From the NCBI GenBank assembly GCA_963663765.2, contig CAXXUA010000005.1, positions 704,001 through 768,000 of the forward strand: DNA of 64,000 nucleotides. Direction: 5' to 3'. Each line of letters starts with the position of its first letter. Position 1 is the first letter of the stretch. The notes under the pieces were generated by a model. It did not search any database and had not been told where the DNA came from. It saw nothing but the letters and a program-made list of their open reading frames with translations. Positions 1,713-60,816 of the stretch are shown one piece after another. Both the position numbers and the translations under genes were made by a program. The stretch comes from Candidatus Poribacteria bacterium. Its GTDB lineage: Bacteria > Poribacteria > WGA-4E > WGA-3G.

Positions 1713-2730
1713 ACGAGTTGTGCTAAATAACTATATGTTAATCATTGTTTCACATAAGCATGACGTTTTGCAGGTGTCCTTCATAGTTTGAAACGATCTT
1801 TAGTCCCGTAGGGACGATATGTTTATAGAAATACGCCATAGCACATACTCTTTAGTCCCGACAAATGCCATACGCGCATTTGGCGTTGATTTGGTAGGGA
1901 CGATATGTTTATAGAAATACGCCATAGCACATACTCTTTAGTCCCGACAAATGCCATACGCGCATTTGGCGTTGATTTGGTAGAGACGATATGTTTATAG
2001 AAATACGCCATAGCACATACTCTTTAGTCCCGACAAATGCTATACGCGCATTTGGCGTTGATTTGGTAGGGACGATATGTTTATAGAAATACGACATAGC
2101 ACATACTCTTTAGTCCCGACAAATGCTATACGCGCATTTGGCGTTGATTTGGTAGGGACGATATGTTTATAGAAATACGACATAGCACATACTCTTTAGT
2201 CCCGACAAATGCCATACGCGCATTTGGCGTTGATTTGGTAGCGACGATATGTTTAGAGAAATACGCCATAGCACATACTCTTTAGTCCCGTAGGGACGAT
2301 ATGTTTATAGAAATACGCCATAGCACATACTCTTTAGTCCCGACAAATGCCATACGCGCATTTGGCGTTGATTTGGTAGCGACGATATGTTTAGAGAAAT
2401 ACGCCATAGCACATACTCTTTAGTCCCGACAAATGCCATACGCGCATTTGGCGTTGATTTGGGTAGGGACGATATGTTTAGAGAAATACGCCATAGCACA
2501 TACTCTTTAGTCCCGTAGGGACGATATGTTTATAGAAATACGCCATAGCACATACTCTTTAGTCCCGTAGGGACGATATGTTTATAGAAATACGCCATAG
2601 CACATACTCTTTAGTCCCGACAAATGCCATACGCGCATTTGGCGTTGATTTGGTAGGGACGATATGTGTGCATTATAAACCTAATATATGTAAAAACTTT
2701 GAAAACAATGGGTTAACTAGCACAAGTCGT
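1713..2730. mobile_element. MITE family 1 (ACGAGTTGTGC...GCACAAGTCGT) with 12 tandem 52/86-bp REP-like units
   Basis: Imperfect TIR; flanks tagtaca/tagtact; same shell at 4632, 29297 and 49482; units built on gtcccgtagggac, 8 with and 4 without a 34-bp insert. Confidence 0.9.
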
Positions 2731-2837
2731 TAGTACTGCGAATCTCAGAAATGTGATTTTGTTCAAATTCACAAGATTGTATATCTGGTAAATCGGGGTT
2801 GGCAAACCCTCCTACCATTTATGAGATAGAATGTAGA

Positions 2838-3308
2838 TTAAAGATGCTGCGGTTCCTGATAGGAATAGCTTTGGATGACATCATTCATCAATAGACGTTG
2901 TGCAATTGTCTGTATCATTTCCGAGTTCAAGTCACCATGCAACCAGAACTTTTGACCAGTGCGTACAGCATCGACTCTGGATATACCTATGTCTTTTATC
3001 CCTTTTGCCGTACTATCACCCACTGCATCTGTAACACCAGGTTTGAATTGGACTTCAACAGTCCAATCTGAACTATTATCGTAAACACTGTCAAAAGTGT
3101 AGTTCTGTGTTATTGGATCAGCAAGAAGTTCTGATCCAATTCGGTCAACAGTTTGAGAGTCAAGATCACCTTCAATCCAATAGACCGCTGCAGTTCTGAC
3201 AGATTCCACACCTTGTATTCCAAGGTCAAAAATGTCTTCAACGATACCAAGTCCAATCGTGTCAGGTACATCAGACTTGTAAAATACTTCAACTTTCCAA
3301 TTCTTCAT
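2838..3308 (-). CDS. purS: Phosphoribosylformylglycinamidine synthase PurS-like protein (two tandem PurS domains)
   Basis: Two repeats VEV..K..V.D..G....LL.DP/ND.I. Confidence 0.75.
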   Translation of the reverse strand: MKNWKVEVFYKSDVPDTIGLGIVEDIFDLGIQGVESVRTAAVYWIEGDLDSQTVDRIGSELLADPITQNYTFDSVYDNSSDWTVEVQFKPGVTDAVGDSTAKGIKDIGISRVDAVRTGQKFWLHGDLNSEMIQTIAQRLLMNDVIQSYSYQEPQHL

Positions 3309-3388
3309 AGATGTCTTTCTTATGTTAGTGTAAACGTAGAGATGAAAACTTCAATTGTAGTAACAGATTTTCATGATGGATTTTCAAT

Positions 3389-4225
3389 ATGAATACAAAA
3401 CAGATTCGTATATTAGTATTTGGCGCGCATCCCGATGATTGTGATATAAAAGCTGGTGGCATAGCTGCATTATATGTCAATCAAGGACACCTTGTGAAGT
3501 TCATTTCAGTAACAAACGGTGATGCTGGTCACCATACGATGGGAGGTAGTCCATTAGCTCAAAGAAGAAATGCAGAAGCACAAGCAGCTGCAAAAGTAAT
3601 TGGAATCGCGTATGAACTTTTTGATAATCACGATGGAACGTTGATGCCAACCTTGGAAAATCGTTTACAAGTCATACGCGCTATTCGTGATTTCAAACCA
3701 GATCTGATTATGACCCACCGTCCTAACGACTATCATCCGGATCATCGCTATACATCAATACTTGTACAAGACGCTGCGTATATGGTCACCGTTCCGAATA
3801 TCTGTGCGTTAACGCCACATTTAGAGAAAAATCCGGTGATCGTTTATCTCAGTGACAACTTTCAGAAACCTTATCCTTTTTCACCTGATGTCGTCGTAGC
3901 AATTGATGATGTAATAGAAAAGAAAATAGACATGCTTTATTGTCACGAATCACAGTTTTTTGAATGGCTTCCTTACAACAGCGGTACACTAAAAAACGTA
4001 CCAAACAAACCTGACTCCCGTCGTGAATGGCTTGCAAAAAGAATAAAAAATCGCTTTCATACAATAGCAAAAACGTATCGGGATCGGTTGAAAGAACTAT
4101 ACGGTACGGAACTTGGTAATAACATTCAATATGCTGAGGCATTTGAAGCATGTGAATACGGTTCCTCTCTGACCACAGAAAACTTACCACACTTATTTCC
4201 TTTTTTTCTAAAAAACTCTGAATAA
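3389..4225 (+). CDS. PIG-L/LmbE family deacetylase
   Basis: GAHPDD and DYHPDH metal-binding motifs. Confidence 0.92.
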   Translation: MNTKQIRILVFGAHPDDCDIKAGGIAALYVNQGHLVKFISVTNGDAGHHTMGGSPLAQRRNAEAQAAAKVIGIAYELFDNHDGTLMPTLENRLQVIRAIRDFKPDLIMTHRPNDYHPDHRYTSILVQDAAYMVTVPNICALTPHLEKNPVIVYLSDNFQKPYPFSPDVVVAIDDVIEKKIDMLYCHESQFFEWLPYNSGTLKNVPNKPDSRREWLAKRIKNRFHTIAKTYRDRLKELYGTELGNNIQYAEAFEACEYGSSLTTENLPHLFPFFLKNSE

Positions 4226-4231
4226 GGTCAA

Positions 4232-4428
4232 TTTATGGTAAATTATGGAATTAATTACACACTTGCACAGGTAGGAGCGACCTCCTGGTCGCGACCGTAT
4301 GGAGACCATGTATCAATACCGTCACGACCAGGAGGTCACTCCTACCAAAGAAAAGAATAGGATACTCACAAGACAGCCAATATGGTAAATTGTAGAAATG
4401 TAATCTAATTTTTTAAATTTCGCCATAA
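4232..4428. mobile_element. MITE-like shell (TTATGGTAAATT ends) with GTAGGAGCGA REP doublet
   Basis: ttatggtaaatt...aaatttcgccataa ends; inverted pair gtaggagcgacctcctggtcg / cgaccaggaggtcactcctac; related ends at 46299-47180 and 50554-50583. Confidence 0.65.
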
Positions 4429-4631
4429 TTGGGTAATTCGTCCTAAAACACAACCAAATGGACACTATTTTCGTTTTTTGGTAACAATTTAAATGTAGAG
4501 TAAACCCAGTGGTAGCAAAGTTTTACAGGTATTTTCTTGGAAATTAAATAAATATTTTCTGCAAGTGTAACATTTTGTAATTTCTTGTTAAGATGAGAAT
4601 AATCTGTCAGTATTATTAATGTGTATATATA

Positions 4632-5032
4632 ACGAGTTGTGCTAAATAACTATATGTAAATCATTGTTTCACATAAGCATGACGTTTTGCATGTGTCCTT
4701 TATAGTTTGAATCGATCTTCAGTCCCGACAAATGCCATACGGGGAATGCCTTAATGGCATTCATACCGTTGATTTGGCGCATTTGGCGTTGATTTGGTAG
4801 GGACGATATGTTTATAGAAAAACGTCATAGTACATACTCTTTAGTCCCGACAAATGCCATACGGGGAATGCCTTAATGGCATTCATACCCGGGGAATGCC
4901 TTAATGGCATTCATACCGTTGATTTCTTGATTTGGCGCATTTGGCGTTGATTTGGTAGGGACGATATGTGTGCATTATAAACCTAATATATGTAAAAACT
5001 TTGAAAACAATGGGTTAACTGGCACAAGGCGT
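4632..5032. mobile_element. MITE family 1 copy with nested micro-insertions
   Basis: Same ends and internal sequence as 1713-2730; two REP units, each carrying the 34-bp insert, itself interrupted. Confidence 0.88.
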
Positions 5033-5157
5033 TTATATATTTTGTTACGCATCTGATATGTAATATATATTATTACATATCTAATAATATGTGTCAAGTA
5101 TTTTTCAGGGATATTCAGTTTTCCTAATATTTGGATTTTTCAAAAGAATAACCCCGC

Positions 5158-5505
5158 GGTAGGAGCGACCCGGGGAATGCCAAAAGGCATTCATACCCGA
5201 CGAATGCCATAGGCGCATTCGGCGTTGATTTGGGGGAATGCCTAAATGGCATTCATACCGTTGATTTCTTGATTTGGTGCTTTGTAAGCGCGCTCTTGGG
5301 ACTTGATGTGCCAGCGCGCTTACAAAGCACGCCTACCAGGGTAGGTTAGAGATAATTACCTAATTTATTTTTTAATCTTCATTAAGGCATTCTCCGCCTA
5401 CCAGGGTGGGTTAGATAGAATTATCTAATTTATCTAACTTCATTAGGGACGATATGTTTATAAGTTGGGGTTCGTACATACATATCGTTCCTACAGGACT
5501 AAAGG
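5158..5505. repeat. Composite REP / micro-element cluster
   Basis: GTAGGAGCGA arm, three stacked micro-hairpins (5172-5276), gtgctttgtaagcgcgc REP pair, truncated micro-element (5381-5395), tagggacgatatg pair. Confidence 0.8.
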
Positions 5506-5664
5506 CATGGACAAGATGGCAACACATAAAATTAACGTTATAGCAATAATTCATCAAAATACCTCAAACTAAATAACCCTGCCATCATGATGTTTTTCTT
5601 GTCATTTCTTTGGATATATGGTATTTTATTAAAATATATTTCCCCAAACGAAAAGGACAATCCA

Positions 5665-8040
5665 GTGAGTCTGCCAAAAACGCTAATAAGCATTCTCTTT
5701 TTTTTCAGTCTACTTCCAATAATTGCTACAGCCAAATCGCCAAAAGCGCGTACACATCTCCCCACAAATTCGGTAGCAATGAGCGATGATGCATTAGCCA
5801 CTTTCTTCAACCCCGCAGGATTAGGCACTCACCGCGCTTTGAACTTATACTATCTAAGAACATACCGCAGCGACACCCCCGGCGATGATGCCTTCTTTAT
5901 CTCCGCTCCAAGTAGTGGATTTGGCATGGAGTTTGTGAACGCACCAAACGACATAGACTTTACACGATACAGTTTGGCTGCCGGACAACATCTCGGAGAT
6001 GCTTTGTACTGGGGAACAAACTATAGTTGGATCAACTCGGATAATGAGTCCTATGATAAGTATAAGGCTATATCTATCGGTTTGATGTACCGTCGCCGCT
6101 ATTTTTCAATCGGAGCGATAGGACGCGACCTTAACCGACCCACACTACTCGATCAAAAGATGCCGCGAATCTACGATATGGGGATTGCACTACGCCCAGG
6201 AACATGGCGTACAACTTTCTCATTTGATGTACGAAAAACGCAAAATGTAAGCGAATTAGACCTGAGTTATGGTCTTGAAATTCGTCCCATTCGTGAATTT
6301 ATACTCCGTGGCACATATAACAGCGATAACAGCTATGACATTCGCTTCGGTATCAACATAGGCAATTTCGGTTTCGGTACAGTCAACGACTTTGATCACG
6401 GTGGGGAATCCAACGCAGGTGTCGGTTACATGCACTTCTCATCCGCATCTATAACAAAACCCATATTTCGTAAACGGCTTTTTCTTGATTTAGGAATGGA
6501 ACAAATCGACGCTGCACTCCGAATTGCCAAATGGGACAATGATATCGCAGGTGCTTTAATCCGATTGGATGGCAGCAGCTACGGGATGGGGCAATTCCAA
6601 GAGATACGGGATGCTATAGTGGAATTCAAGGAAGCAGACAAAATCGTTATGTGTTACATTACTGACTGCTCAACGGGTGACTACATCGTTGCCTCAGCAT
6701 GCGACACAATCTTGATGCATCCGAGTGCTGATCTACGACTGATAGGGTTACGATCCGAACGCTCCTTCTACAAAGGTGCCCTGGACAAACTCGGTATCCA
6801 AGCACATCTTGAACACATCGGTGAATATAAATCTGCGGCAGCAGCATATACGCAAGAAAGCATGGCAGAACCACACCGCGAAAACCAAAATGCACTTCTT
6901 GACGATCTATACGACCAACTTACTACAGAGATCGCGACCACACGCGGCTGGACACCGGGAACTGTGATGAAGTTGATTGATAATGGTCCCTATACCGCAA
7001 AAGAGGCACAAAATGCAAATATTGTTGACGAACTACTTTACGATGATAGTCTGAACGTCATTGCCAGTCAACTCGCAGACACTGAAGTTAACCTGATTAA
7101 GCTCAATGATTATCTAAGAAGCGGATTGTACCCACACGACTGGACGGTGCAAAAACCTAAAATCGCAGTGATTGAAGCAACGGGTATGATGTTAACCGGA
7201 GAAAGTTTTTCTGACTTATTGACTGGAACTTCAGTGATGGGGGCAGATACAATTGCCCGCGCCATCAAGTATACGCGAGAAGATGCATCCATTAAGGCAG
7301 TTGTCTTGCGCATTGATAGCGGAGGCGGATTAGTCGTCGCCGCTGATATAATATGGAACGAACTCATGCGGCTCACAGAGGTAAAACCCCTTGTCGTCTC
7401 TATGGCAGATGTCGCTGCCTCTGGTGGATATTATATCGCCGCGGCTGCGGATGTCATTGTCGCAGAACCCGGGACCATTACAGGATCAATCGGTGTTATC
7501 GGTGGAAAGTATAGTTTCAAAGGATTGTATGAAAAAATTGGCATCAAGAAGGAGATAATGCAACGCGGTGCACACGCAGACTTTTACAGTGATTATAGTG
7601 ATTATCCACCACATGAACAGGAGATCGTTCAGAGACAGATCAAGGAGATTTATGACAATTTTATAACAAAAGTCGCATTGGGAAGAGATCAATTGACGAA
7701 GGAAGAAGTTGATAAAGTCGCACGCGGACGTGTCTGGACAGGACGACAAGCAAAAGAAAATGGATTGGTTGATGTACTCGGTGGGCTTAGCGATGCACTC
7801 TCAATTGCAAAAAAACGCGCAGGTCTGGAAAAACAGGTCGTTCAGGTTGTACGTTTACCAAAACCTACTTGGTTCACACAGTTGTTAGGTAACATTAGAC
7901 TGGTTTCTACCGAGAAATTGGCACCGTTGCCAAACATCTATCAGTTCTTTGGTCAATCAACCAGTCTAAAATTGCTGAATATCATAAAGAAACATAGAAT
8001 CTTTCTATTGATGCCTTATGAAGTATCTGTCGGTTCATAA
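5665..8040 (+). CDS. sppA: Signal peptide peptidase SppA (S49) fused to an N-terminal predicted beta-barrel domain
   Basis: GEYKSA (Lys), RIDSGGG, AASGGYY (Ser), ITGSIGV and GRVWTG..A...GLVD motifs; N-terminal signal peptide, FFNPAGLG motif and amphipathic strands; GTG 5665 after AAAGGA chosen as start. Confidence 0.88.
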   Translation: MSLPKTLISILFFFSLLPIIATAKSPKARTHLPTNSVAMSDDALATFFNPAGLGTHRALNLYYLRTYRSDTPGDDAFFISAPSSGFGMEFVNAPNDIDFTRYSLAAGQHLGDALYWGTNYSWINSDNESYDKYKAISIGLMYRRRYFSIGAIGRDLNRPTLLDQKMPRIYDMGIALRPGTWRTTFSFDVRKTQNVSELDLSYGLEIRPIREFILRGTYNSDNSYDIRFGINIGNFGFGTVNDFDHGGESNAGVGYMHFSSASITKPIFRKRLFLDLGMEQIDAALRIAKWDNDIAGALIRLDGSSYGMGQFQEIRDAIVEFKEADKIVMCYITDCSTGDYIVASACDTILMHPSADLRLIGLRSERSFYKGALDKLGIQAHLEHIGEYKSAAAAYTQESMAEPHRENQNALLDDLYDQLTTEIATTRGWTPGTVMKLIDNGPYTAKEAQNANIVDELLYDDSLNVIASQLADTEVNLIKLNDYLRSGLYPHDWTVQKPKIAVIEATGMMLTGESFSDLLTGTSVMGADTIARAIKYTREDASIKAVVLRIDSGGGLVVAADIIWNELMRLTEVKPLVVSMADVAASGGYYIAAAADVIVAEPGTITGSIGVIGGKYSFKGLYEKIGIKKEIMQRGAHADFYSDYSDYPPHEQEIVQRQIKEIYDNFITKVALGRDQLTKEEVDKVARGRVWTGRQAKENGLVDVLGGLSDALSIAKKRAGLEKQVVQVVRLPKPTWFTQLLGNIRLVSTEKLAPLPNIYQFFGQSTSLKLLNIIKKHRIFLLMPYEVSVGS

Positions 8041-8045
8041 ACTTC

Positions 8046-8711
8046 ATGTCCGAAAATCGGGGAAGGCGTATAATGATGCATGCCGATGAATTTGCTAATG
8101 CCAGAAAAAAAATGGTTCGCAACCAAATCGCAAACCGGGATATACGAAATCCTGATATACTGTCTGTTATGGAGAAAATCCAAAGACATCTATTTGTAAC
8201 TCATGAATATCAAGAATGGGCATATCAAGATAGACCGCTGCCAATAGACAAAGGGCAAACAATATCGCAACCCTACATCGTTGCATTAATGACTGATTTA
8301 CTCAAACTGTCACAGAATTCCAAAGTGCTTGAAATCGGAACTGGGTGTGGCTATCAGACTGCAGTTTTAGCTGAACTTGCCAAGGAAGTATATTCTGTAG
8401 AGATATTACCCGAACTCGCAGAAAGTGCTAAAGAAAAATTAGAAGAACTCAACTATGCAAACGTCCATTTTAAAGAGGGTAACGGTTATTATGGGTGGAT
8501 TGAAAATGCACCTTATGACGCGATTCTCGTAACGGCTGCACCCGCAAAAATACCGTATAGACTTACACAACAACTCGCTGACGATGGACGGATGGTCATC
8601 CCTGTCGGTTCTGACATACAACAACTCTTCTTAATAAAAAAATGTTCAGGTAAAGTAGAAACCACAACAATAACAGGTGTCAGTTTCGTTCCGATGACAG
8701 GCACACCGTAG
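8046..8711 (+). CDS. pcm: Protein-L-isoaspartate O-methyltransferase
   Basis: GQTISQPYIVA, VLEIGTGCGYQTAVLA, APYDAILVTAA and FVPM motifs. Confidence 0.96.
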   Translation: MSENRGRRIMMHADEFANARKKMVRNQIANRDIRNPDILSVMEKIQRHLFVTHEYQEWAYQDRPLPIDKGQTISQPYIVALMTDLLKLSQNSKVLEIGTGCGYQTAVLAELAKEVYSVEILPELAESAKEKLEELNYANVHFKEGNGYYGWIENAPYDAILVTAAPAKIPYRLTQQLADDGRMVIPVGSDIQQLFLIKKCSGKVETTTITGVSFVPMTGTP

Positions 8712-8719
8712 GAGAAAGC

Positions 8720-9676: not shown

Positions 9677-9756
9677 TGGCGGAATAAATCGTTATACGTG
9701 TTGCATGAAACCTCATTGTGCATTATAGGAAATGAAACTGTTCTACCAACCCACGA

Positions 9757-11126: not shown

Positions 11127-11173
11127 GGGGTTGAAAACCCCTCCCACAAGAGGTTAAATCCTTAAGTTAACAC

Positions 11174-11315: not shown

Positions 11316-11363
11316 GTTGAACAAGGAACATCCATAACGGAGCATGAAGTTCAATTTAAAACC

Positions 11364-16762: not shown

Positions 16763-16884
16763 CAGGACTTACGAAAAAAAGGTAGGCGTGCTTTGTAAGC
16801 GCGCTGGAAACCCATAAAAACGCTGATAATTGCATCATTTTCATCATAATTCTTGATTATATCAAGAAAACTGCGTAAGTCCTG
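16763..16884. mobile_element. MITE family 3 (CAGGACTTACG(C)A TIR, 122 bp), empty allele
   Basis: TIR caggacttacg/cgtaagtcctg; carries ggtaggcgtgctttgtaagcgcgc REP; TSD imperfect here. Confidence 0.85.
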
Positions 16885-18906: not shown

Positions 18907-19098
18907 CAGGACTTTCGCACCCAACGGTAGGCGCGCTTTGTAGGCGGGGAATGCCAAAAGGCATTCATACCCGGGGAATGCCAAAAGGCATTCATACCGT
19001 TGATTTCTTGATTTGGCGCTGGAAACCGAAAAAATGCTGAAAATTACACCATTTTTGTCATAATTCTTCATAAAATCATGAAAACTGCGTAAGTCCTG
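18907..19098. mobile_element. MITE family 3 copy, 5-bp TSD CCTTA, carrying a 70-bp micro-element insert
   Basis: TIRs, TSD cctta on both sides; 192 bp = 122 + 27 + 43. Confidence 0.92.
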
Positions 19099-35789: not shown

Positions 35790-35914
35790 CAAACAATCTC
35801 CTTGTGGCACTTGATATATAGTCGATTTTAGAATATCCTGAACACACGGACTGCGTGTGTTATAGCACAACCTGTATGAATATTAATAAGTACTTTGGGT
35901 AATTCTCCTAATCC

Positions 35915-36050
35915 AACCCTGGTAGGCGGGGAATACCTAAATGGCATTCATACCGTTGATTTCTTGATTTCTTGATTTCTTGATTTGGTGCTTGTAAGTG
36001 CGCTGTTGAGTTTTGACATACCGGCGCGCTTACAAAGCACGCCTACAGGG
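35915..36050. repeat. GTAGGCGTGC REP doublet with a 60-bp micro-element at 35928-35987
   Basis: ggtaggc[insert]gtgcttgtaag ... cttacaaagcacgcctac inverted pair. Confidence 0.85.
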
Positions 36051-36152
36051 TTTGGTGAAAATTAGAATTACCGAATTAGTAAATTAATCTTCATTTAGGT
36101 TGTGCAGAAATGGACAAATTTCTATATCTACAATGTACGTAAATTGAAAATG

Positions 36153-38802: not shown

Positions 38803-39705
38803 ATAGGTGTCAACTTAGCGATTCATATTATTGTAGGAGGGAAACCTTGAAATCCCGATTTTCTCACTCAAGGTAGGCGTGCTTTGTAAGCACGCCACCC
38901 AACTGCCACCCACCTGCAGGCGTGCTTTGTAAGCGCGCCACTCAACTGCCACCCAACTGCACCCCAATTGCAGCCGTGCTTTGTAAGCGCGCCACCCAAG
39001 CGCGCCACCCAACTGCAGCCGTGCTTTGTAAGCGCGCCACCACCTGCCACCCAACTGCAGGCGTGCTTTGTAAGCGCGCCACCCAACTGCAGCCGTGCTT
39101 TGTAAGCGCGCCACCTAACTGCAGCCGTGCTTTGTAAGCGCGCCACCCAATTGCAGCCGTGCTTTGTAAGCACGCCACCTAACTGCAGCCGTGCTTTGTA
39201 AGCACGCCACCTAACTGCAGCCGTGCTTTGTAAGCACGCCACCCAACTGCACCCCAATTGCAGCCGTGCTTTGTAAGCGCGCCACCACCTGCCACCCAAC
39301 TGCAGCCGTGCTTTGTAAGCGCGCCACCCAACTGCAGCCGTGCTTTGTAAGCACGCCACCCAAGCGCGCCACCCAACTGCAGCCGTGCTTTGTAAGCGCG
39401 CCACCACCTGCCACCCAACTGCAGCCGTGCTTTGTAAGCGCGCCACCCGACTGCAGGCGTGCTTTGTAAGCGCGCCACCAATGATAGCAGTGCTTTGTAA
39501 GCGCGCCACCCAACTGCACCCCAATTGCAGCCGTGCTTTGTAAGCGCGCCACCAATGGTAGCAGTGCTTTGTAAGCGCGCCACCAATGGTAGCAGTGCTT
39601 TGTAAGCGCGCCACCCAACTGCACCCCAATTGCAGCCGTGCTTTGTAAGCGCGCCTACCGAGATGGGGTATTTAGCAGTTGACTTTTTCTTAAGTTGACA
39701 CCTAT
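38803..39705. mobile_element. MITE family 2 shell with about 21 tandem gtgctttgtaagc(g/a)cgcc units (31-55 bp period)
   Basis: TIR ataggtgtcaactta/taagttgacacctat; array 38872-39660 opened by ggtaggc and closed by gcctacc. Confidence 0.88.
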
Positions 39706-45955: not shown

Positions 45956-46286
45956 TGTGCTGTTAGGAAACCGCACCATAGGCGTCAATTTAAAAAAAGT
46001 GTTTGCATTTTCTCTTGTGGGAGGGGTTTTCAACCCCGATATAACAGAAGATGAACATAAAATCCAAATCAACGTCAGAAGCGTGTTTGGCTTCTGTCGG
46101 GGTTGAAAACCCCTCCCACAATACGTGAAAATCCTAAAATTGACGCTTATGGTGCTGTTAGGAAACCGCACCCATAGGCGTCAATTTTAGGATTTTAACC
46201 TCTTTTGGGAGGGGTTTTCAATCTCTCCCAAAAGAAAAACGATAACATTTTTATTGACGTTTATGGTGCGGTTTCCTAACAGCACC
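45956..46286. repeat. Two family-2-variant MITEs (ATAGGCGTCAATTT TIR) interleaved with gtgctgttaggaaaccgcac palindromes
   Basis: Shells at 45978-46150 and 46174-46264; GGGAGGGGTTTTCAA cargo. Confidence 0.8.
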
Positions 46287-46298: not shown

Positions 46299-47180
46299 TA
46301 TGGTGAATTATTTCTATGGTGAATTATTTCTATGGTGAATTATTGAAATAATTATACGCTTCTTCTGTAGGAGCAACCTCCCGGTCGCGATCGTTCCCTG
46401 CGTTGGTAGGAGCGACATCCCGGTCGCGACCGTCACCTGCGTTGGTAGGAGCGACATCCCGGGCGCGACCGTCACCTGCGTTGGTAGGAGCGACATCCTG
46501 GTAGCGATCGTCCCCTGCGTTGGTAGGAGCGACATCCTGGTAGCGATCGTCCACTGCGTTGGTAGGAGCGACATCCTGGTAGCGATCGTCCACTGCGTTG
46601 GTAGGAGCAACATCCTAGTCTCGACCGTCACCTGCGTTGGTAGGAGCGACCTCCCGGGCGCGACCGTCACCTGCGTTGGTAGGAGCGACCTCCCGGGCGC
46701 GACCGTCACCTGCGTTGGTAGGAGCGACCTCCCGGGCGCGACCGTCACCTGCGTTGGTAGGACCAACATCCTGATCGTGATCGTCCCCTACGTTGGAAGG
46801 AGCGACCTCCCGGTCCCGACCGTCACCTGCGTTGGTAGAAGCAACATCCTGGTCGCGAGCGTCCCCTGCGTTGGTAGAAGCGACCTCCCGGTCGCGAGCG
46901 TCCCCTGCGTTGGTATGACCAACATCCCGGGCGCGACCGTCCCCTGCGTTGGTATGACCAACATCCTGGTCGTGATCGTCCCCTGAGTTGGTAGGAACGA
47001 CATCCTGGTCGCGATCGTCCCCTGCGTTGGTATGACCAACATCCCGGGCGCGACCGTCCCCTGCGTTGGTAGGAGCGACCTCCCGGTCGCGACCGTATGT
47101 AGACCATATTTCAATACAATCATGACCATAAGGTCCCTCCTATCAACGCGAGAGTGTAATTAATTCCATAATCTACCATA
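46299..47180. mobile_element. MITE shell (TATGGT ends) with 19 tandem 39-bp GTAGGAGCGA REP units
   Basis: 39-bp period from 46367 to 47069; single degenerate closing arm at about 47125-47143. Confidence 0.88.
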
Positions 47181-47305
47181 AATTACCGAAATTATTTATT
47201 GATCTTCTAATGGCATTCATACCGTTGATTTCTTAATTTGGTGATTCAGACAAAAACCGCGAACCAAACAAAAAACTAAATATACCTGCCTTACGATTTC
47301 AACTC

Positions 47306-49335: not shown

Positions 49336-49470
49336 AGGACTTACGCACCCAACGGTAGGCGGGGAATGCCTAAATGGCATTCATACCGTTGATTTGGTGC
49401 TTTGTAAGCGCGCTATTGGGACTTGATGTGCCAGCACGCCTACCAGGGTGGGTTAGATAGAATCACCTAA
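49336..49470. mobile_element. Chimeric element: family-3 left end, 36-bp micro-element (49361-49396), right part matching 5277-5360
   Basis: caggacttacgca start without the matching right TIR; tgggacttgatgtgccagc shared with the 5.3-kb element. Confidence 0.75.
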
Positions 49471-49481: not shown

Positions 49482-49758
49482 ACGAGTTGTGCTAAATAAC
49501 TTTATGTTAATCATTGTTTTACATAATCAGAACGTTTTGCAGGCAACCTTCATAGTTTGAAACGATCTTCAGTCCCGTAGGGACGATATGTTTATAGAAA
49601 AACGGCATAGTACATCCTCTTTAGTCCCGTAGGGACGATATGTTTATAGAAAAACGGCATAGTACATCCTCTTTAGTCCCGTAGGGACGATATGTGTGCA
49701 TTATAAACCTAATATATGTAAAAACTTGGAAAACAATGGGTTAACTAGCACAAGTCGT
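49482..49758. mobile_element. MITE family 1 copy (277 bp), 7-bp TSD TTTATTA
   Basis: Same length and structure as 29297-29573; tttatta on both flanks. Confidence 0.92.
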
Positions 49759-49914
49759 TTTATTAATCTCCATACAGTTTGTGCTACAATAACTTGTGAA
49801 AAGGACATTATACTAAGAATAAACGGTATCTGCAGGTCTATAATCCTATAGGTAGCAACTTGCGTTATTAAAGTAGAAATGGTATTAAATAAAGCGCATG
49901 AATGAGGAGTACGC

Positions 49915-50583: not shown

Positions 50584-50607
50584 AACCCTGTGACTGGAGC
50601 GAATTAA

Positions 50608-51810: not shown

Positions 51811-51821
51811 ACAGAATTATT

Positions 51822-54047: not shown

Positions 54048-54056
54048 TCACTTCTC

Positions 54057-55583
54057 CTATAATCCAGCTTGGAATGTACCCATGAGTCTGGTAAGTTCAA
54101 CGACAGATTCTCTGAACATGTCAAGTGCAAAGTTGGGCCATACACCGAGAACAATGGTGAGTATTCCGAGGGGTACCAAAGTCAGGATTTCACGTTTATT
54201 TATTTCAGGCAGTTCTTCATATTTGGGATTGAGTTTCCCAAGGAAGACTCTTTGAAGTGTCCAGAGGAAGTATGCTGCCCCTACTACAATGCCAATTGTA
54301 GACAAGATAGTCAATAGTTGGAATTTTTCAAAAGCGCCGATAAGAGATAGCACTTCGCCGACAAAACCGCTTAGGCCGGGTAAGCCCAATGATGCCATAA
54401 ACGCGAGCGTTGTAATACCTGCATAAATAGGCATTCTACCTGCCAATCCACCGAAACCGTTGATTTCACGGTGATGTGCACGGTCGTAGAGGACACCGAC
54501 AAGTAGGAAGAGCATTGCACTGATGACACCGTGATTGAACATCTGTAGGATGGCACCGTTAACCCCCATCGTATTTCGAGCGGCAAGTCCTAAGATAACA
54601 AACCCCATGTGTCCAATACTGGAATATGCGACTAACTTCTTAAAATCAGTTTGTGCCAACGCGCAGAAGGATCCATAAACAATATTAACAAACCCAAGCA
54701 ATGCCAGACTATTCCCCCAGAAACCTACACCATTGGAGAAGAATGCCATCCCTTCAGGAAACATCGCCATGTTAATCCGCACCAGTCCGTAAGTTCCCAT
54801 CTTTAAAAGGACACCTGCAAGAATAACACTAATCGCAGTTGGAGCTTCAACGTGTGCATCCGGTAGCCATGTATGGAATGGGAAGATTGGTACTTTGACA
54901 GCAAACCCGATAAAGAAACCGAGGAAAACCCACATTTGGAAGGTTGGATCAGCCAGAGCATGTCCGGGTGTACTCGCCAACGTGATGAGTGTTGGAATGT
55001 CAAATGTCCGTTCTCCCGGAATACCACTGTTAAGGTACACAGCAATCAAGGCAACTAACATCAGTACGCTGCCAAATAGCGTATAGAGGAAGAATTTAAT
55101 TGCAGCGTATTCCCTACGCGGTCCGCCCCACACACCGATCAGGAAATACATCGGTAAAAGAGTGAGTTCAAAGAAAACAAAGAACAGGAACAGATCCATC
55201 GCAGCGAAAAAGCCTAACATCCCTGTTTCTAATAACAGGAACAATGCCATATATGCCTTAATGCCTTTTTCTATATTTCGCCAAGAGGCAAGGACACAGA
55301 TAGGACCTAACAGAGCAGTGAGAAGTACTAACGTTACGCTTAAACCGTCAAGAGCGACGTAATACTTGATATTGAATGTCCCAATCCAATTAAAAGGACC
55401 GAGTGCGTATTGATCCCCCGACAATGTACGATCATAGTCAATAAACATATATACTGCGATCAGGAGCGGAATTAGCGTAAAACCCAGCGTGACGCGTTTG
55501 ATAAGTTCCTCAGAGTCACGTGGTAAGAGTAAGACAACGATCATCCCAAGCAGGGGGACAAAAATCATTAGAGACAATAACAT
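54057..55583 (-). CDS. nuoM: NADH-quinone oxidoreductase subunit M
   Basis: KFFLYT, PFHTWLPDAHVEAPT, LLKMGTYG. Confidence 0.97.
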   Translation of the reverse strand: MLLSLMIFVPLLGMIVVLLLPRDSEELIKRVTLGFTLIPLLIAVYMFIDYDRTLSGDQYALGPFNWIGTFNIKYYVALDGLSVTLVLLTALLGPICVLASWRNIEKGIKAYMALFLLLETGMLGFFAAMDLFLFFVFFELTLLPMYFLIGVWGGPRREYAAIKFFLYTLFGSVLMLVALIAVYLNSGIPGERTFDIPTLITLASTPGHALADPTFQMWVFLGFFIGFAVKVPIFPFHTWLPDAHVEAPTAISVILAGVLLKMGTYGLVRINMAMFPEGMAFFSNGVGFWGNSLALLGFVNIVYGSFCALAQTDFKKLVAYSSIGHMGFVILGLAARNTMGVNGAILQMFNHGVISAMLFLLVGVLYDRAHHREINGFGGLAGRMPIYAGITTLAFMASLGLPGLSGFVGEVLSLIGAFEKFQLLTILSTIGIVVGAAYFLWTLQRVFLGKLNPKYEELPEINKREILTLVPLGILTIVLGVWPNFALDMFRESVVELTRLMGTFQAGL

Positions 55584-55633
55584 TTAGTGGGAATCCTCCT
55601 TATCCCATCAGGACAGTATTTCATGGGTTTCAA

Positions 55634-57844
55634 CTACAATGCCCGAAAAATCAAAATTATCAACACGATCCCTCCGAGAACAACGAAGAGATATGTTTGT
55701 ATTGCTCCTGTTTGTATTCTGCGGATTCTACCGCCAGCTGCCCACGTAACCTCTGCTACTCGGTTGACGATTCCATCAATAACACGATTGTCAAAGAAGC
55801 CGATAAATGCAGCGAATATTTGCCGTGTGATCGTTGAAACACCGTTGACGATACCGTCAACGACAGAAAGGTCAAATTTTGCAAGAAGTCGGGACTTCCA
55901 TACCGTCAGCGCGACTAAAACGCCATCGTAAAATTCGTCAAAATAGTATTTGTTCCAAAAAAGGTTGTAGACCGGACTGAACTTTGTTGCGACTGCTTCG
56001 GCAGAAAACCTTCGTCTATGATAGAACAACCAAGAAAGTAGTATGCCTAAACCTGCGACAATGATAGACAGAGCCATTGCAATATTATGTGCAACCTCAT
56101 GTATATGATGTGCATCATCAGCATGTTCTGAGTCTTTTCCGCTATCTTCTTCAGCTGCTTCTGCATCGGAAATACCGAAGAGTGAGATGGCAATTTTAGC
56201 GTCACCTGTTTTAGAGTCAGGTGAAACATAAGCATGTGTCGGTGCATGAAGATGGACTTGTTCTGGTGGTTTAAAATTGTCTTTGTTGAACCAGAAATGG
56301 TTGACGACAGGAAAACTCAAGGCTGCTAAAACGATAAGCGGCACTGTCATTGTCCACGGGGATTCGTGTGCCATATTGTGCATTTCTTGATTACGCGGTT
56401 CACCGAAAAAGGTCATGAATATCAGACGAAACATATAAAATGCTGTTATACATGCTGCCAGAAGTGCAATGCCGAATAGGATATAATGATGGATAGAGTT
56501 CCATTCCATTGCGCGTCCGAGCACACCCCCTAAAATCTTATCTTTACTCCAGAAACCTGAAAAGATAAAAGGCACACCAGAAATAGACAAAGTTGCGATG
56601 AGCATTGTAATAAAGGTAATTGGCATCTTGCGACGGAGTCCACCCATATTACGCATATCTTGGTCCGGTGGGATTTCAGAACCGTGTGCATGAACTAATC
56701 CGTGGTCATCGTGTTCATGTTCTGCATTGTCTTCGTGTTCGTTGTCATCATGATGTGCGTGCATTGCGTGGAAGGCGTGGATGACGCTTCCAGAACCGAG
56801 AAACAGTAGTGCCTTGAAAAATGCGTGTGTGGTAAGATGAAAAAGACCGGCAACATAACTACCAGCACCAATTGCCAGCATCATATACCCCAATTGGCTA
56901 ATCGTAGAATATGCCAAAACGCGCTTGATGTCAAACCGGACGATGGCTATGGTCGCGGCGACGATAGCGGTAATACCTCCAACATAAGCGATGACCAGAG
57001 AGGAGGTCGCTGTCAAAATAGGGAACATCCGCGCCGTTAGATACACGCCTGCGGCAACCATTGTTGCGGCGTGAATTAACGCACTGACAGGTGTAGGACC
57101 TTCCATCGCATCAGGTAGCCATGTGTGCAGTGGCATCTGTGCGGATTTACCTATAGCACCACAGAAGATGAGAATGCCAGCGATAGAAAGCCAGACCATA
57201 TCTCCAGTTGTTAATGATGCCGCAAGTGTAAAGATGCCGTCTTGTGCACCATCGTAAAGCGAAAACGTCCTGAATTTAGTAAAGAGCATCATCATGCCGA
57301 TAAACATACCGACATCACCGACACGTGTTGTCAGAAACGCTTTCTTACATGCATTTGCAGCGGTGTCCTTTTCAAACCAAAACCCGATGAGCAGATAGGA
57401 GCAGAGACCGACAAGTTCCCAACCGATATAGATACCGAGTAGGTTATCCGACACCACCAAGAACAACATTGAAAATGAGAAGAGTGAAAGATATGCAAAG
57501 AACCTTGGATACCTCGGATCCCCATGCATATAACCTATAGAGAAGATATGCACAAGACTACTGACCAGTGTAACCACAATCAGCATAATCACGGTAACAC
57601 TGTCGAGGTAAAATCCCATTGATAAAGTGATGTTCCCGAGTGAAAGCCATTTGACAGTATGCGGTTTTGGATCGGGTGCTATCTCATTCATTAAATAGAG
57701 GGAACAACCGAGAGCAACCAGCATTGCAGCGGTTGACAAAAGGTCTTGGCGTGGGAAACTCCGTTTTGCTAAACCCAGAAATGCAAAGATCGCAAAGGAT
57801 GCAAGTGGAGCAAGTAAGATGATACTAATTAAGGGAACAACCAT
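55634..57844 (-). CDS. nuoL: NADH-quinone oxidoreductase subunit L
   Basis: GKSAQ.PLH.WLPDAMEGPTPVSALIHAATMV, HAFFKALLFL. Confidence 0.97.
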   Translation of the reverse strand: MVVPLISIILLAPLASFAIFAFLGLAKRSFPRQDLLSTAAMLVALGCSLYLMNEIAPDPKPHTVKWLSLGNITLSMGFYLDSVTVIMLIVVTLVSSLVHIFSIGYMHGDPRYPRFFAYLSLFSFSMLFLVVSDNLLGIYIGWELVGLCSYLLIGFWFEKDTAANACKKAFLTTRVGDVGMFIGMMMLFTKFRTFSLYDGAQDGIFTLAASLTTGDMVWLSIAGILIFCGAIGKSAQMPLHTWLPDAMEGPTPVSALIHAATMVAAGVYLTARMFPILTATSSLVIAYVGGITAIVAATIAIVRFDIKRVLAYSTISQLGYMMLAIGAGSYVAGLFHLTTHAFFKALLFLGSGSVIHAFHAMHAHHDDNEHEDNAEHEHDDHGLVHAHGSEIPPDQDMRNMGGLRRKMPITFITMLIATLSISGVPFIFSGFWSKDKILGGVLGRAMEWNSIHHYILFGIALLAACITAFYMFRLIFMTFFGEPRNQEMHNMAHESPWTMTVPLIVLAALSFPVVNHFWFNKDNFKPPEQVHLHAPTHAYVSPDSKTGDAKIAISLFGISDAEAAEEDSGKDSEHADDAHHIHEVAHNIAMALSIIVAGLGILLSWLFYHRRRFSAEAVATKFSPVYNLFWNKYYFDEFYDGVLVALTVWKSRLLAKFDLSVVDGIVNGVSTITRQIFAAFIGFFDNRVIDGIVNRVAEVTWAAGGRIRRIQTGAIQTYLFVVLGGIVLIILIFRAL

Positions 57845-57855
57845 ATTGTTTCGTT

Positions 57856-58185
57856 TTAACCTTTCAAGGTATCCACGTCATCTGGACGTATACTACCGAA
57901 TTCACGGTAAATAGCGAGAATAATTGCGAGAAAAACTGCTGCTTCTGCTGCTGCAAGGACAATACCAAAGATTGCTATAATTTGACCGTCAATGTTTTGA
58001 ATTATTTTCCCATCAACTTCTTTAATCGTAACAAAACGTGAAAACGCAGCGAAATTGAGATTACATGAATTGAGGATGAGTTCAATACCCATCAAAATGC
58101 TGATAGCGTTTCGCCGAGTCAGTACTGCGAAAATACCGAGTGTAAAGAGAATGGAACTGATGACCAAATAGTGTTGTAGACTCAT
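57856..58185 (-). CDS. nuoK: NADH-quinone oxidoreductase subunit K
   Basis: RRNAI.ILM.IEL.LN, AAAEAAV. Confidence 0.96.
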   Translation of the reverse strand: MSLQHYLVISSILFTLGIFAVLTRRNAISILMGIELILNSCNLNFAAFSRFVTIKEVDGKIIQNIDGQIIAIFGIVLAAAEAAVFLAIILAIYREFGSIRPDDVDTLKG

Positions 58186-58209
58186 GTTATCCTAAAGACT
58201 CAACGGGAA

Positions 58210-58728
58210 TTAGTCCCGAACCTCCTTGCGAGAAATAAGAGCAGCACCGATCAACGCCACTAACAGCAGAACGGAGACGACTTCAAACGGTAGTAAAAAC
58301 TTTTCTTGCAGAATCAGTTCTCCGATTCGTTCAGTTGTCGGCGCGAGTTGTATCCCGTCATCCGTTCGATTTTTCCAACCGGGTGTATTTGCGATAACTG
58401 TTAGCAGCAACATTAATAGTGCCAATGAAATACCGGCACCTAATAACAGTTGTCCGCGTTCTATGTGGATACGCATCTCTAACCTTCCGCTTGTCATCAT
58501 CACACCAAAAAGGATAAGCACAAGAATACCACCGACATAGACAATCACCTGTGTTGCAGCGAGGAAGTCTGCCTGTAGAAAGACATATAATCCTGCTACC
58601 CCAAACAGAGTAACCATCAGCGCAAACGCCGCGTGTACAATGTTTCGAACAGTGACGACTGCGAACGCCGAGGCAATTGTTATGAGTGCGAATCCATAAA
58701 AGATAAAGGTTTTAAGTGTAAAATCCAT
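58210..58728 (-). CDS. nuoJ: NADH-quinone oxidoreductase subunit J
   Basis: QVIVYVGGI.VL.LF, PFE..SVLLLVA.IGA. Confidence 0.96.
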   Translation of the reverse strand: MDFTLKTFIFYGFALITIASAFAVVTVRNIVHAAFALMVTLFGVAGLYVFLQADFLAATQVIVYVGGILVLILFGVMMTSGRLEMRIHIERGQLLLGAGISLALLMLLLTVIANTPGWKNRTDDGIQLAPTTERIGELILQEKFLLPFEVVSVLLLVALIGAALISRKEVRD

Positions 58729-58759
58729 ATCATGTAGTTCTCAGCGAATCAATCAAATA

Positions 58760-59335
58760 CTATTCTCCAGGAACTAACCTTAATTCTGATGGTTCACCTA
58801 CCAGATAGTAAGAGAATTGAAATCCTTGTGGAACGACGTATCCATCGTCAAGTTGAAATGGTGGAAGATCTAGAGCACCAATACCATCATCTGTAAAACG
58901 ATTGAGTGCATAATTTATCGTAGTGTTTAGTCTCATTATTTCCCGAGACCCGCTACCTTTTGCTTTGTCATATTTTATTTCCATAGAGGTGTTTTCAAAA
59001 TTGAGTATCGCTACATACATAGTGCTATAGGCGGCATCACCAGATAAAGCCCAATCTTCACGGTCTAACCCTACAACTAAATCCCCATGTGAAGGAGCGG
59101 GAGCCGCCTTAAGTCTCCACCAAATATTTTCCGCATCCTCACGAGTTTTCTCAATAGTGATGACTGGAATTTCATCTCGTGGTATTAAGCTGTTTACAAT
59201 TGGCGAGTTTTCTCCTTCTAAGCCGTTCTGAGGGTCAAGCACGTTGGCATTATTGTCTTCTGCGTCGCCACCGCAACCCAAAATAACTAATCCACTCAAC
59301 AAAAACAAGATTGAAAAAAATGTGTAAAATCTCAT
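58760..59335 (-). CDS. Hypothetical lipoprotein inside the nuo operon
   Basis: Signal peptide with lipobox ILGC followed by an acidic linker. Confidence 0.75.
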   Translation of the reverse strand: MRFYTFFSILFLLSGLVILGCGGDAEDNNANVLDPQNGLEGENSPIVNSLIPRDEIPVITIEKTREDAENIWWRLKAAPAPSHGDLVVGLDREDWALSGDAAYSTMYVAILNFENTSMEIKYDKAKGSGSREIMRLNTTINYALNRFTDDGIGALDLPPFQLDDGYVVPQGFQFSYYLVGEPSELRLVPGE

Positions 59336-59447
59336 AGACGAATTCCTTTTTAAAATATAGAATAGCATTGCAATTGCTATCTTGCAAATTGTCGTAAAAC
59401 TTTCCTAATCTGCAGCCTCTGTGTTATCCGCTTCGTCTTTATCGTAC

Positions 59448-59569
59448 CAGGACTTACGCACCCAACGGTAGGCGTGCTTTGTAAGCGCGCCGGAAACCGA
59501 AAAAATGCTGAAAATTACACCATTTTCGTCATAATTCTTCATCAAATCATGAAATCTGCGTAAGTCCTG
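59448..59569. mobile_element. MITE family 3 (122 bp, empty allele), 5-bp TSD CGTAC, inserted in the nuoI 3' end
   Basis: 13-bp perfect TIR caggacttacgca; cgtac on both flanks. Confidence 0.95.
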
Positions 59570-60251
59570 CGTACATCTCTTGTTTGTCAAAATTGAAAAT
59601 TAAGTCTGTGCGGTCAAAACTTGAGTACTCAATACCTTCAAGTGAATCTTTCATAACAAGGCATTGTGTAGGACACACTTCCGTGCAAAGTCCGCAATAC
59701 ATACATAACGACATATCAATATCAAACTGGTCAAGATAGAAAACAACAGGGTTTCGGGTAATGACACTGGAGATTTCATCTGTAGTAACGGTCTGTGTCC
59801 TGCTTTCATCTTCTGATGCTTCCAAACGATCAACTACCTCTTGCGATCCTAAACGCGTGCTGATATTTGTAATCGTTACAGACTCTTCTGACATAATCTT
59901 TTTGTCGTCGCCTTCAATGATGCCGATGATTTCGCGTCCATCCTTGAGATGCACGACGTTCATGCTGTCCCAGAGTTGTTCACCTTTAGGCAGTTTTGTG
60001 CCGGTGATCGTAATACAATCCACAGGACAAATCATTTCACACTTTTTACACCCGATGCAATCCTCAATTCGATTGTAGAGTTGACCGCGATACCCTTTCG
60101 GAATCTCTCGGACGTTCTGTTTTTTCTCAAAATCGTGTTCGTAAGGATATTGGTGTGTCACATTGGGTTCAAAGAACTGGCGAATTGTAATCCGCATGCC
60201 AACGAGAACGGTGTAAACCCCTTTGTAAATGTTACGTATATATTTGTCCAT
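59547..60251 (-). CDS. nuoI: NADH-quinone oxidoreductase subunit I (internal insertion; C-terminus altered by MITE)
   Basis: VT.QYP, YRG, CIGCKKCEMICP and CMYCGLCTEVCP 4Fe-4S motifs. Confidence 0.93.
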   Translation of the reverse strand: MDKYIRNIYKGVYTVLVGMRITIRQFFEPNVTHQYPYEHDFEKKQNVREIPKGYRGQLYNRIEDCIGCKKCEMICPVDCITITGTKLPKGEQLWDSMNVVHLKDGREIIGIIEGDDKKIMSEESVTITNISTRLGSQEVVDRLEASEDESRTQTVTTDEISSVITRNPVVFYLDQFDIDMSLCMYCGLCTEVCPTQCLVMKDSLEGIEYSSFDRTDLIFNFDKQEMYAGLTQIS

Positions 60252-60301
60252 AACAAACGTTCCTTTGTAGGTCTATAGTTTCCTACCATTAAAGATGTTG
60301 A

Positions 60302-60604
60302 CTACCAACCGTAACCCATGTTAACCAATTGTTCAAGAAGTTTATAGATAAATACTGTACTAAAACTTCCACACATAAACATATTAAATTTGGGAAATAT
60401 ATTCGCTAAAATGAAAATTAAGGATCCTATTAAACTAAATCCACTAACAATTAATTGCATTATATTCTTTTCCCATCCAACTGAATCACCGACAAGACCG
60501 CCTATAATTCCAAAACATATTAATAACAACGCGATTACACCAAATACAACTCGTAATTTCACATCCGATTTCATAAGGTTCAAAACATTTTTTGCAGTGT
60601 TCAT
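60302..60604 (-). CDS. Small AT-rich membrane protein inside the nuo operon
   Basis: GAGGA RBS, 2-3 hydrophobic segments. Confidence 0.65.
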   Translation of the reverse strand: MNTAKNVLNLMKSDVKLRVVFGVIALLLICFGIIGGLVGDSVGWEKNIMQLIVSGFSLIGSLIFILANIFPKFNMFMCGSFSTVFIYKLLEQLVNMGYGW

Positions 60605-60650
60605 AATGTCCTCTGAATTAACTTAGCAATTTCTATCCACAAAAACCAAT

Positions 60651-60816
60651 CAGGACTTACGCACCCAACAGTAGGCGGGGAATGCCTAAACGGCATTCAT
60701 ACCGTTGATTTCTTGATTTGGTGCTTTGTAAGCGCGCCGGAAACCTAAAAAATGCTGAAAATTACATCGTTTTCGTCTTAATTCTTGATTGGATCATGAA
60801 AACTCCGTAAGTCCTG
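60651..60816. mobile_element. MITE family 3 copy, 5-bp TSD CCAAT, with a 44-bp micro-element (60677-60720)
   Basis: TIRs, TSD ccaat; 166 = 122 + 44. Confidence 0.93.

Follow-up and report, generated by a model that had tools for sequence, protein, structure and literature searches.

The DNA analysed here is a stretch of 64,000 nt from a Candidatus Poribacteria bacterium (GCA_963663765.2, CAXXUA010000005.1:704,001-768,000; referred to as the window), and it raises the question of how very short hairpin modules come to sit at exact positions inside other short repeats. An initial annotation of the window had described two such modules, types B and C, as minute non-autonomous elements inserted precisely at C^G inside repetitive extragenic palindromes (REPs), and had proposed transposition by an HUH enzyme. 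The modules were analysed in the window, in the complete assembly from which it derives (G000; 6.35 Mb, 15 contigs, ~41% GC) and in other Poribacteria. In our estimate there is about an even chance (roughly 0.5) that they represent one genus-restricted family of miniature non-autonomous insertion modules, for which single-strand cut-and-join by a trans-acting HUH-type enzyme is the favoured route. All B and C coordinates given previously were found again in the window sequence, where the B-tail motif matched 11 times (0.02 expected by chance) and the C core eight times (0.00 expected). The sites all lie between long open reading frames (ORFs), with the exception of one empty site within a doubtful ORF, and no Rfam model matched the 64-kb window at gathering score.

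The modules, 34-60 bp long and present in hundreds of copies, follow a common plan, in which a hairpin head of 25-27 nt, with a varied stem whose pairing is kept, precedes a conserved tail of the form G-TTGATTT-(C-TTGATTT)n-G. Type B comprises 34 bp and reads GACAAATGCC ATACG CGCATTTGGC GTTGATTTG, with a variant at 5199, and type C reads GGGGAATGCC-N4/5-GGCATTCATACC-GTTGATTT(CTTGATTT)n-G; their window copies are located in Table 1. With one mismatch allowed per arm, 582 C heads were counted in G000, followed by GTTGATTTG in 222, by GTTGATTTC in 173 and by C plus a further head in 89 cases, while exact B tails numbered 136 and occurrences of CGTTGATTT 792. When sorted by the sequence preceding it, the tail CGTTGATTT was found to be common also to families D (GACAGAAGC-CAAACGC-GCTTCTGAC, 15 copies in G000, at ACCCC^G), X (a C/B hybrid, ~30 copies) and E (~40 copies, with a 51-nt head GGGGAATGCC-TAAA-GAAGCATGCGCGTATGGCATGCTCC-ATGATTCATACC, e.g. 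at C4:926249 and C5:1653670), and to a long form. The latter measures 182 nt (C2:89668), has C tips around AT-rich arms and a whole REP hairpin, and corresponds to the unit of a 221-bp composite set inside a C head. Between B, C and D the stems differ, the pairing is always kept and the tail is the same; within the C stems, 46 double Watson-Crick changes were counted against 4 double mismatches. Folded as single-stranded DNA, the hairpins gave z scores of -2.2 to -3.3 on the plus strand and of -1.5 and -3.3 on the minus strand, and in the predicted folds of B (both strands) and of the C minus strand the flanking C of the host pairs with the first G of the tail. Insertion sequence (IS) or gene ends sharing the tail were considered and rejected, the other sequences 5' of GTTGATT being unrelated repeats. 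The previous inventory was accurate in its coordinates and incomplete in its content: it lacked the D copy on the minus strand, the tail-less stacked heads and the long-form arm at position 47212, which looks like a truncated C copy. The segment of family E between GGGGAAT and ATTCATACC also occurs reverse-complemented (e.g. C8:38926, minus strand), as if the hairpin inside can flip.

Insertion boundaries were assessed by exact excision of simple elements, which gave an exact 11+11 empty site elsewhere in G000 for 158 of 298 C and 47 of 54 B elements. Shifting the excision by -1 produced empty sites for only 19/298 C and 1/54 B, and shifts of -2 and +2 did so for 18/298 and 44/298 C; a shift of +1 was as good as 0, which corresponds to a 1-nt G ambiguity, and no target-site duplication was detected in this test (ambiguity of 1 nt at most). 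With a permissive parser, 304 of 516 arrays had an empty site. Exceptions were one host in which the element ends at the last T (junction C^C) and another whose empty site fits only with a 1-nt difference. The two empty alleles quoted previously, GGTAGGCGTGCTTTG and GTCCCGTAGGGAC, are both present in the window, the second in 11 places.

The base to the left of the element was C in 517 of the 582 heads of G000. For a closer definition of the target, 211 distinct 8+8 contexts not abutting another module were compiled, 60 of them from other genomes. C preceded the element in 194 of these contexts, position -2 was C or G in 172, position -3 in 166, position -4 was A in 148, and the first host base after the terminal G was G in 145; among the other genomes, C stood on the left in 59 of the 60 contexts and in 91 of 97 arrays. 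Because of these left-flank preferences the target is best written A-S-S-C^(G), specified mainly on the 5' side. The C^G junction previously assigned to every complete copy is thus right for the left C in most contexts and does not apply universally, as in many cases the G on the right belongs to the element as its final base, and junctions of the types C^C and C^T also occur. Similarly, the copy at 5233 follows another tail (junction G^G), and the B at 5199, which had been placed in a host CCC, follows a tail-less C head instead. When the flanks were clustered in the orientation of the element, the 40 largest of 65 clusters contained no host class in reverse. The earlier claim of very small non-autonomous modules is borne out by the excision test, the flank clusters and the 211 contexts together: insertion is precise and leaves no target duplication, the orientation is fixed, and the sites are REP-type hairpin repeats or other modules. 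The modules occupy intergenic DNA and are oriented independently of the flanking genes (80 vs 86), and a transcription-linked orientation was accordingly rejected. On the large contigs of G000, C heads occupy 67 loci between divergent and 30 between convergent genes, modules and REPs being about twice as common in the former. In the comparison with other species, at coding identities of 70-90% and with intergenic regions turned over, one plausible orthologous C^G filled/empty pair (L027) was obtained; otherwise only whole composites could be scored.

The abundant host repeats carry GTAG beside the stem (GGTAGGCGTGCTTTGTAAGCGCGC, GGTAGGAGCGACC… and GTCCC-GTAG-GGAC) and are GTAG-type REPs in the sense of PMC3733652. 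Their designation as REPs, made previously, agrees with this motif and with a gene for a REP-associated tyrosine transposase (RAYT) in G000, located at C4:621634-622047 (NF047646, 121 bits vs a cut-off of 80; 225-aa ORF with an HIH motif). This gene is flanked on both sides by GTAG REP arrays (31-nt inverted copies of CTGTAGGAGGGAACTCCGATTCCCGAC) and constitutes a REPtron; in relatives, GTAG REPs likewise flank at least 8 of 20 RAYT-like loci. G000 also carries four IS200/IS605 tnpA copies, at C5:688634-688987 (15 kb upstream of the window), C3:287718, C5:550867 and C5:353059, with a TnpA of 139-150 aa, a subsequent putative TnpB-like ORF and a left end starting TTAACACTATTCCGTCAAATCCCCATGC. 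In sequence the ends of these four copies have no relation to the modules, and the nearest module is more than 2.5 kb away.

The distribution of the modules was surveyed in 176 genomes of the phylum Poribacteria. The hairpin-independent tail motif CGTTGATTTCTTGATTT was detected in 35 of the 39 further genomes that belong to the genus; the remaining 136 genomes of the phylum, 72 of which represent different genera of this family, had none. The C-head pattern was found in 23 of 24 other congeners searched, at 0-151 copies vs 361 in G000, and in none of 16 genomes from three other families; among the C-core matches listed, 79 of 80 records are titled Candidatus or uncultured Poribacteria and one 'uncultured bacterium'. 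The module family is confined to one Poribacteria genus among the genomes surveyed. Cyanobacterial origin, or identity with the small dispersed repeats (SDRs) of Nostoc, was rejected on the grounds of these record titles and of the HIP1 sites (GCGATCGC), of which there are only 29 in G000. The modules are not an assembly artefact, since the C core is present in at least 91 stretches of independent metagenome-assembled genomes and in contigs of four public runs (Logan contigs, which break inside repeats).

The best clue to the reaction is the way in which heads and octamers are stacked. Tail-less heads precede another head with a linker C in 79 and a linker A in 6 of 85 pairs. In 29 pairs the adjacent heads are identical; they differ in the other 56, of which 51 show a difference in length or of 3 nt or more, and tandem duplication therefore accounts for only some of the stacks. 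Among the arrays of G000, 323 have one head and 67 several, and the number of octamers tracks the number of stacked heads: one-head arrays carry one octamer in 224 cases, two in 78 and three or more in 21 (mean 1.41), two-head arrays one in 3, two in 46 and three in 9 (mean 2.10), and the 7 three-head arrays a mean of 3.14. In both blocks the internal linker is C and the terminal linker G, so that the stacks read (head.C)n-1 head.G (TTGATTT.C)n-1 TTGATTT.G. Simple nested-insertion models of the stacks were rejected, because none reproduces the C linkers.

Under the proposed mechanism, a trans-acting HUH-type enzyme (RAYT or IS200-like) would cut and join the folded single strand, and modules would integrate in one orientation and without target duplication 3' of A-S-S-C^, usually before G. 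Most integrations would enter GTAG-type REPs and resident modules, giving rise to nested and stacked forms, and most copies would then multiply passively along with the host repeat. A duplex of 34-36 bp cannot circularise or synapse its ends, and we infer a single-stranded intermediate because the modules are too short for a duplex circle and have a shared core of only ~1 nt. Fixed orientation, absence of duplication, a 5'-specified target, a conserved hairpin with free stem sequence and a one-sided tail all argue for single-strand cut-and-join. The HUH proposal draws on the analogy to IS200/IS605 and RAYT systems, in which insertion takes place 3' of a tetranucleotide, without duplication and with recognition of a hairpin. 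To our knowledge, HUH Y1 transposases are the only well-known enzymes that cut and join folded single strands in this manner, and G000 has two sorts of them, RAYT and IS200-type TnpA.

Several observations weigh against this proposal. A gene of the Y1 type flanked by the module hairpin and tail, for which a search had been suggested, was not found: modules bracket none of the six Y1 loci in G000, five of which are free of module marks out to 2.5 kb (the sixth, a contig-end fragment, has a C module at a distance of ~0.5 kb), and neither B nor C brackets any of the 25 Y1 loci fetched from relatives, 20 of which are RAYT-like. Y1_Tnp was not detected at E<=0.001 in G024 (closed, one contig, 91 C heads), G001 (65 C heads) and G010 (67), and it is present in G003, which has no C heads. 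RAYT matches over the cut-off occur in 14 of 22 genomes with at least ten tail motifs and in 11 of the 18 with a lower number. Module orientation in the closed relative G022 was unbiased among the 100 of 121 matches listed (14+/23- before dnaA, 29+/34- after). The striking raw counts suggesting a replication-strand bias in G000 shrank once clusters were collapsed, leaving a modest relation to GC skew (79+/38- at skew <0, 32+/36- at >0; odds ratio 0.43, p 0.008). Insertion points fell in predicted loops in 69 of 286 contexts vs 122 of 600 control CG sites, i.e. without enrichment, and loop insertion as a rule was rejected. Much of the copy number, moreover, is passive, through host repeats and block duplication. 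In IS200/IS605 elements the ends are marked by two subterminal hairpins, and cleavage takes place at some distance from these; the modules' single hairpin, with the left cut at its foot, does not correspond to this plan. The one-hairpin plan, the lack of a gene association and the lack of a strand bias count against a textbook IS200/IS605 or RAYT reaction, and with no bracketed Y1 gene, no clear tracking of module load by Y1 or RAYT and no replichore bias in the closed relative, the HUH mechanism of the initial annotation is not demonstrated for the modules. As stated in passages of PMC3733652, REPs are known to persist without a REPtron. As REPs outlive their REPtrons, the RAYT counts weaken the HUH reading without refuting it.

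An account that is unlikely but has to be reckoned with treats the modules as relics of a few old insertions that are now immobile, the copies having arisen from REP and MITE-like composites (MITE, miniature inverted-repeat transposable element), array copying and gene conversion. It would explain why the flanks of 483 compounds form 65 clusters, about a dozen of them large host families, why a single head subtype prevails in each host class (35/60 in B loops, 23/36 in one H2 variant), and why module load is uncorrelated with any enzyme gene examined (Y1, RAYT or RVT_1). In the window array, Tandem Repeats Finder reported periods of 52 and 86 bp as well as higher-order periods of 138 and 224 bp; filled units were therefore copied as blocks, and the eight B copies of this array stand for few events and not for eight insertions. 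A composite of 221 bp containing C is present or absent as a whole between strains: a contig of run X6 (record 17), from a strain ~98% identical as estimated from word share, joins position 35873 to 36095 with one letter between, so that the whole composite with its four-octamer C is lacking there. Relics would not be expected to keep the same exact left boundary across the 211 contexts, 60 of which come from other genomes, or to include so many differing adjacent head pairs. Identical head subtypes, moreover, recur in 6-7 host classes (the TAAAT-loop head in 7 of 14, the AAAA-loop head in 6), which argues for many insertions, several subtypes occur per class (at least six exact head sequences in the main one, including four loop types that differ beyond a point change), and members of one genus carry anywhere from 0 to 361 C heads. 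Spread of single ancestral events by host copying, which had been named as a possible refutation, thus explains much of the copy number and is not borne out by the many host classes and contexts. Both processes took place: many insertions occurred, and after insertion most copies multiply passively with the host repeat.

Doubtful as well is a variant of the insertion scenario with an enzyme that is neither a Y1 HUH protein nor a reverse transcriptase, such as a core host enzyme or an undescribed transposase. It would recognise the hairpin foot and the TTGATTT heptamers and integrate 3' of A-S-S-C, and the stacking would be the footprint of new nested integration at the head-tail boundary. If so, the modules would be among the smallest DNA insertion elements known.

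We consider it rather improbable that no dedicated transposase is involved and that a stalled nascent strand ending in C switches by microhomology to a module at another site, is extended along it and goes back to its own template, or that repair provoked by hairpins leads to the same result. Such events would suit junctions sharing only 1-2 nt (C on the left, G on the right), targets in highly structured repeat DNA, a module load uncorrelated with the enzyme genes examined, and an octamer number that varies as slippage would give. They would be expected to leave ragged ends, whereas the left boundary is identical in 211 contexts; the fixed orientation relative to the host motif and the conservation of stem pairing and tail across families, as for a recognised substrate, also speak against them.

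Very improbable is an RNA route, reportedly proposed for the Nostoc SDRs, in which the module is transcribed and reverse-transcribed into its target. With its variable number of octamers, the 3' end is reminiscent of the repeats at the 3' end of retroposed elements, the hairpin would fold as RNA too, and single-sided stem changes on the plus strand give weak support (G.T 31 vs A.C 17). The copy-richest genome, G000, has no RVT_1 match at E<=1e-5 (four candidates scored), however, and only 18 of 40 congeners have one; furthermore, orientation is unrelated to flanking gene direction, and no 5'-truncated series was seen, the apparent case at 47212 being a long-form arm. The least probable reading is an ordinary MITE or recombinase substrate that moves as double-stranded DNA (through a DDE, IS110-type, serine or tyrosine recombinase), since the head may be read as two terminal inverted repeats, the 182-nt long form has the same tips and IS110-like elements also insert orientation-specifically and without duplication, but a DDE-type target duplication is missing, the 34-36 bp duplex is too short to circularise or synapse, the shared core is at most 1-2 nt and no head/tail-bracketed gene was seen among the orphan half-heads and long forms of G000 that were examined. 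A gene-carrying split element between C tips was likewise considered and rejected, orphan 3' halves being family E or long-form arms and the longest complete form measuring 182 nt.

Table 1. Modules and empty target sites in the window (positions counted from the first nucleotide of the window).
Feature	Position	Strand	Remarks
Tandem array of 52-bp REP1 units (hairpin GTCCC-GTA-GGGAC)	1808-2667	+	8 units with 34-bp B, i.e. 86-bp units; 4 empty
B copies in the REP1 array	1860-1893, 1946-1979, 2032-2065, 2118-2151, 2204-2237, 2342-2375, 2428-2461, 2619-2652	+	
B with nested C (one head, one octamer; 4741-4776) in the B loop at CATAC^G	4727-4796	+	Fold of 4726-4797: -15.2 kcal/mol, z -3.3
B with nested C array (two heads, two octamers; 4863-4934) in the B loop	4849-4954	+	Heads identical, 28-bp x2 tandem
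Compound: tail-less C head 5172-5197, linker C, B variant with tail 5199-5232, two-octamer C 5233-5276	5172-5276	+	Flanked by a GTAG REP arm (ggtaggagcgaccc) and gtgctttgtaagcgc
C array, two heads and two octamers, at gctttgtaggc^gcgctgg	18946-19015	+	
C with four octamers at ggtaggc^gtgctt	35928-35987	+	Within the 221-bp palindromic composite 35874-36094
Type D module, GACAGAAGCC-AAACA-CGCTTCTGAC plus GTTGATTTG, at caacccc^gatttt	46065-46098	-	Missing from the initial annotation
Long form, 3' arm (…ttattgatcttctaatGGCATTCATACC) with two-octamer tail	47200-47240	+	Not a complete C head
C, one head and one octamer, at ggtaggc^gtgcttt	49361-49396	+	Fold z -2.7
C, one head and two octamers, at agtaggc^gtgcttt	60677-60720	+	
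Empty target GGTAGGCGTGCTTTG, i.e. GGTAGGC^GTGCTTTG	16781-16795, 38872-38886, 59467-59481 (+); 5323-5337 (-)	+/-	
Three empty REP1 units, GTCCC^GTAGGGAC	49572-49688	+	
Further empty REP1 units	1803, 2285, 2510, 2562, 24748 (-), 29387, 29439, 29491		

The surroundings of the modules in the window are themselves layered. The REP1 arrays (1700-2730, 4620-5030 and 49483-49760) lie in a larger, MITE-like element whose inverted ends read ACGAGTTGTGCTA…TAGCACAAGTCGT; the copy at 49483 splits an AT-rich arm and is bordered on either side by TTATTAA, perhaps as a target duplication. The palindromic composite at 35874-36094 has tips ATGAAtATTAAT…ATTAATCTTCAT and a GTAG REP hairpin at its centre, and as a whole it occupies the loop of a further inverted repeat (gcacaacct…aggttgtgc). 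GTAG REP units (…gtcccctgcgttggtaggagcgacctcccggtcgcgacc…) stand in tandem at 46900-47100, immediately upstream of the long-form arm at 47200. Elsewhere in G000, another repeat (…GGTGTGTAAAGTTTTTGCACA…) breaks C tails after GTTG, its other end adjoining CATACCGTTGATTTG (C4:100838 on the minus strand, C4:1092277, C5:1822161, C10:15979 and C13:649183); the junctions hint that 10 nt of module sequence were duplicated, or that the module served as a target.

The nearest precedent, as compared by description, is provided by the SDR families of Nostocaceae. The SDRs of Nostoc, reportedly described by Elhai et al. in 2008, are said to be lineage-restricted mobile hairpin repeats of 21-27 nt with compensatory changes, which nest in copies of themselves and reside in tandem repeats and mini-transposons. 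Their likeness to the modules is extensive: SDR1-8 measure 21-27 nt and the heads 25-27 nt, both form hairpins with compensatory changes, insert precisely at a fixed point of another short repeat, nest in themselves, reside in tandem repeats and mini-transposons and belong to one lineage, and for neither is an enzyme known. By description, the modules show what marks an SDR-type repeat, namely a hairpin of 20-30 nt, compensatory stem changes, precise insertion in short repeats and self-nesting. Also by their descriptions, the modules are set apart from Nostoc SDRs by the other phylum, the octamer-repeat tail common to families and the A-S-S-C^ target. Passages of PMC4390886 and PMC5861425 state that SDR5 is inserted precisely inside HIP1 and that SDRs are confined to Nostocaceae, and, in the part of PMC3733652 concerned, Di Nocera et al. 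2013 report REPs inserted within palindromes. The statement in the initial annotation that no description of this class was known was consequently too strong.

Other known systems share single traits with the modules. Like REPs, BIMEs and REPINs with their RAYTs, the modules are short extragenic hairpins that occur in hundreds of copies, in clusters and mosaic arrays. RAYT (TnpA-REP) is an HUH Y1 enzyme acting on folded single strands. Unlike in REPs and REPINs, GTAG is missing from both strands of the B, C and D heads (GTAT stands at that place in the C minus strand), and the modules have a one-sided tail, border none of the 25 Y1 loci of relatives and show no clear relation to the presence of RAYT; the RAYT gene of G000 is flanked by GTAG REPs and not by modules, the REPtron arrangement thus applying to the former only. 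IS200/IS605 elements and the gene-less PATEs resemble the modules in insertion 3' of a short motif, lack of duplication, fixed orientation and hairpin-based recognition, and an IS200-type TnpA is present in G000; the modules differ in their single hairpin cut at the foot on the left, in the unrelated ends of the resident IS copies and in the absence of a lagging-strand bias in G022. Bacterial MITEs (Nezha, Correia/NEMIS, ERIC) are likewise non-autonomous, intergenic and nested with inverted-repeat termini, and the modules have a 182-nt long form; by comparison, however, the modules lack target-site duplications, are five to ten times smaller and have no related transposase gene that could be found. 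No publication dealing with repeats of this kind in Poribacteria, or with the module architecture, came up in the literature search. New are the phylum, the octamer-repeat tail common to families, the A-S-S-C^ target and the head/octamer stacking rule.

The spread of very short repeats such as REPs and SDRs is a long-standing open question, for which these modules are unusually clean material, with their exact boundaries, numerous filled/empty pairs, one tail shared by several hairpin families and a defined left target motif. The stacked forms constrain the reaction, and forty congeners with zero to several hundred copies suit association tests. For the Poribacteria, uncultivated symbionts of sponges, the modules point to genomes shaped by layered palindromic elements.

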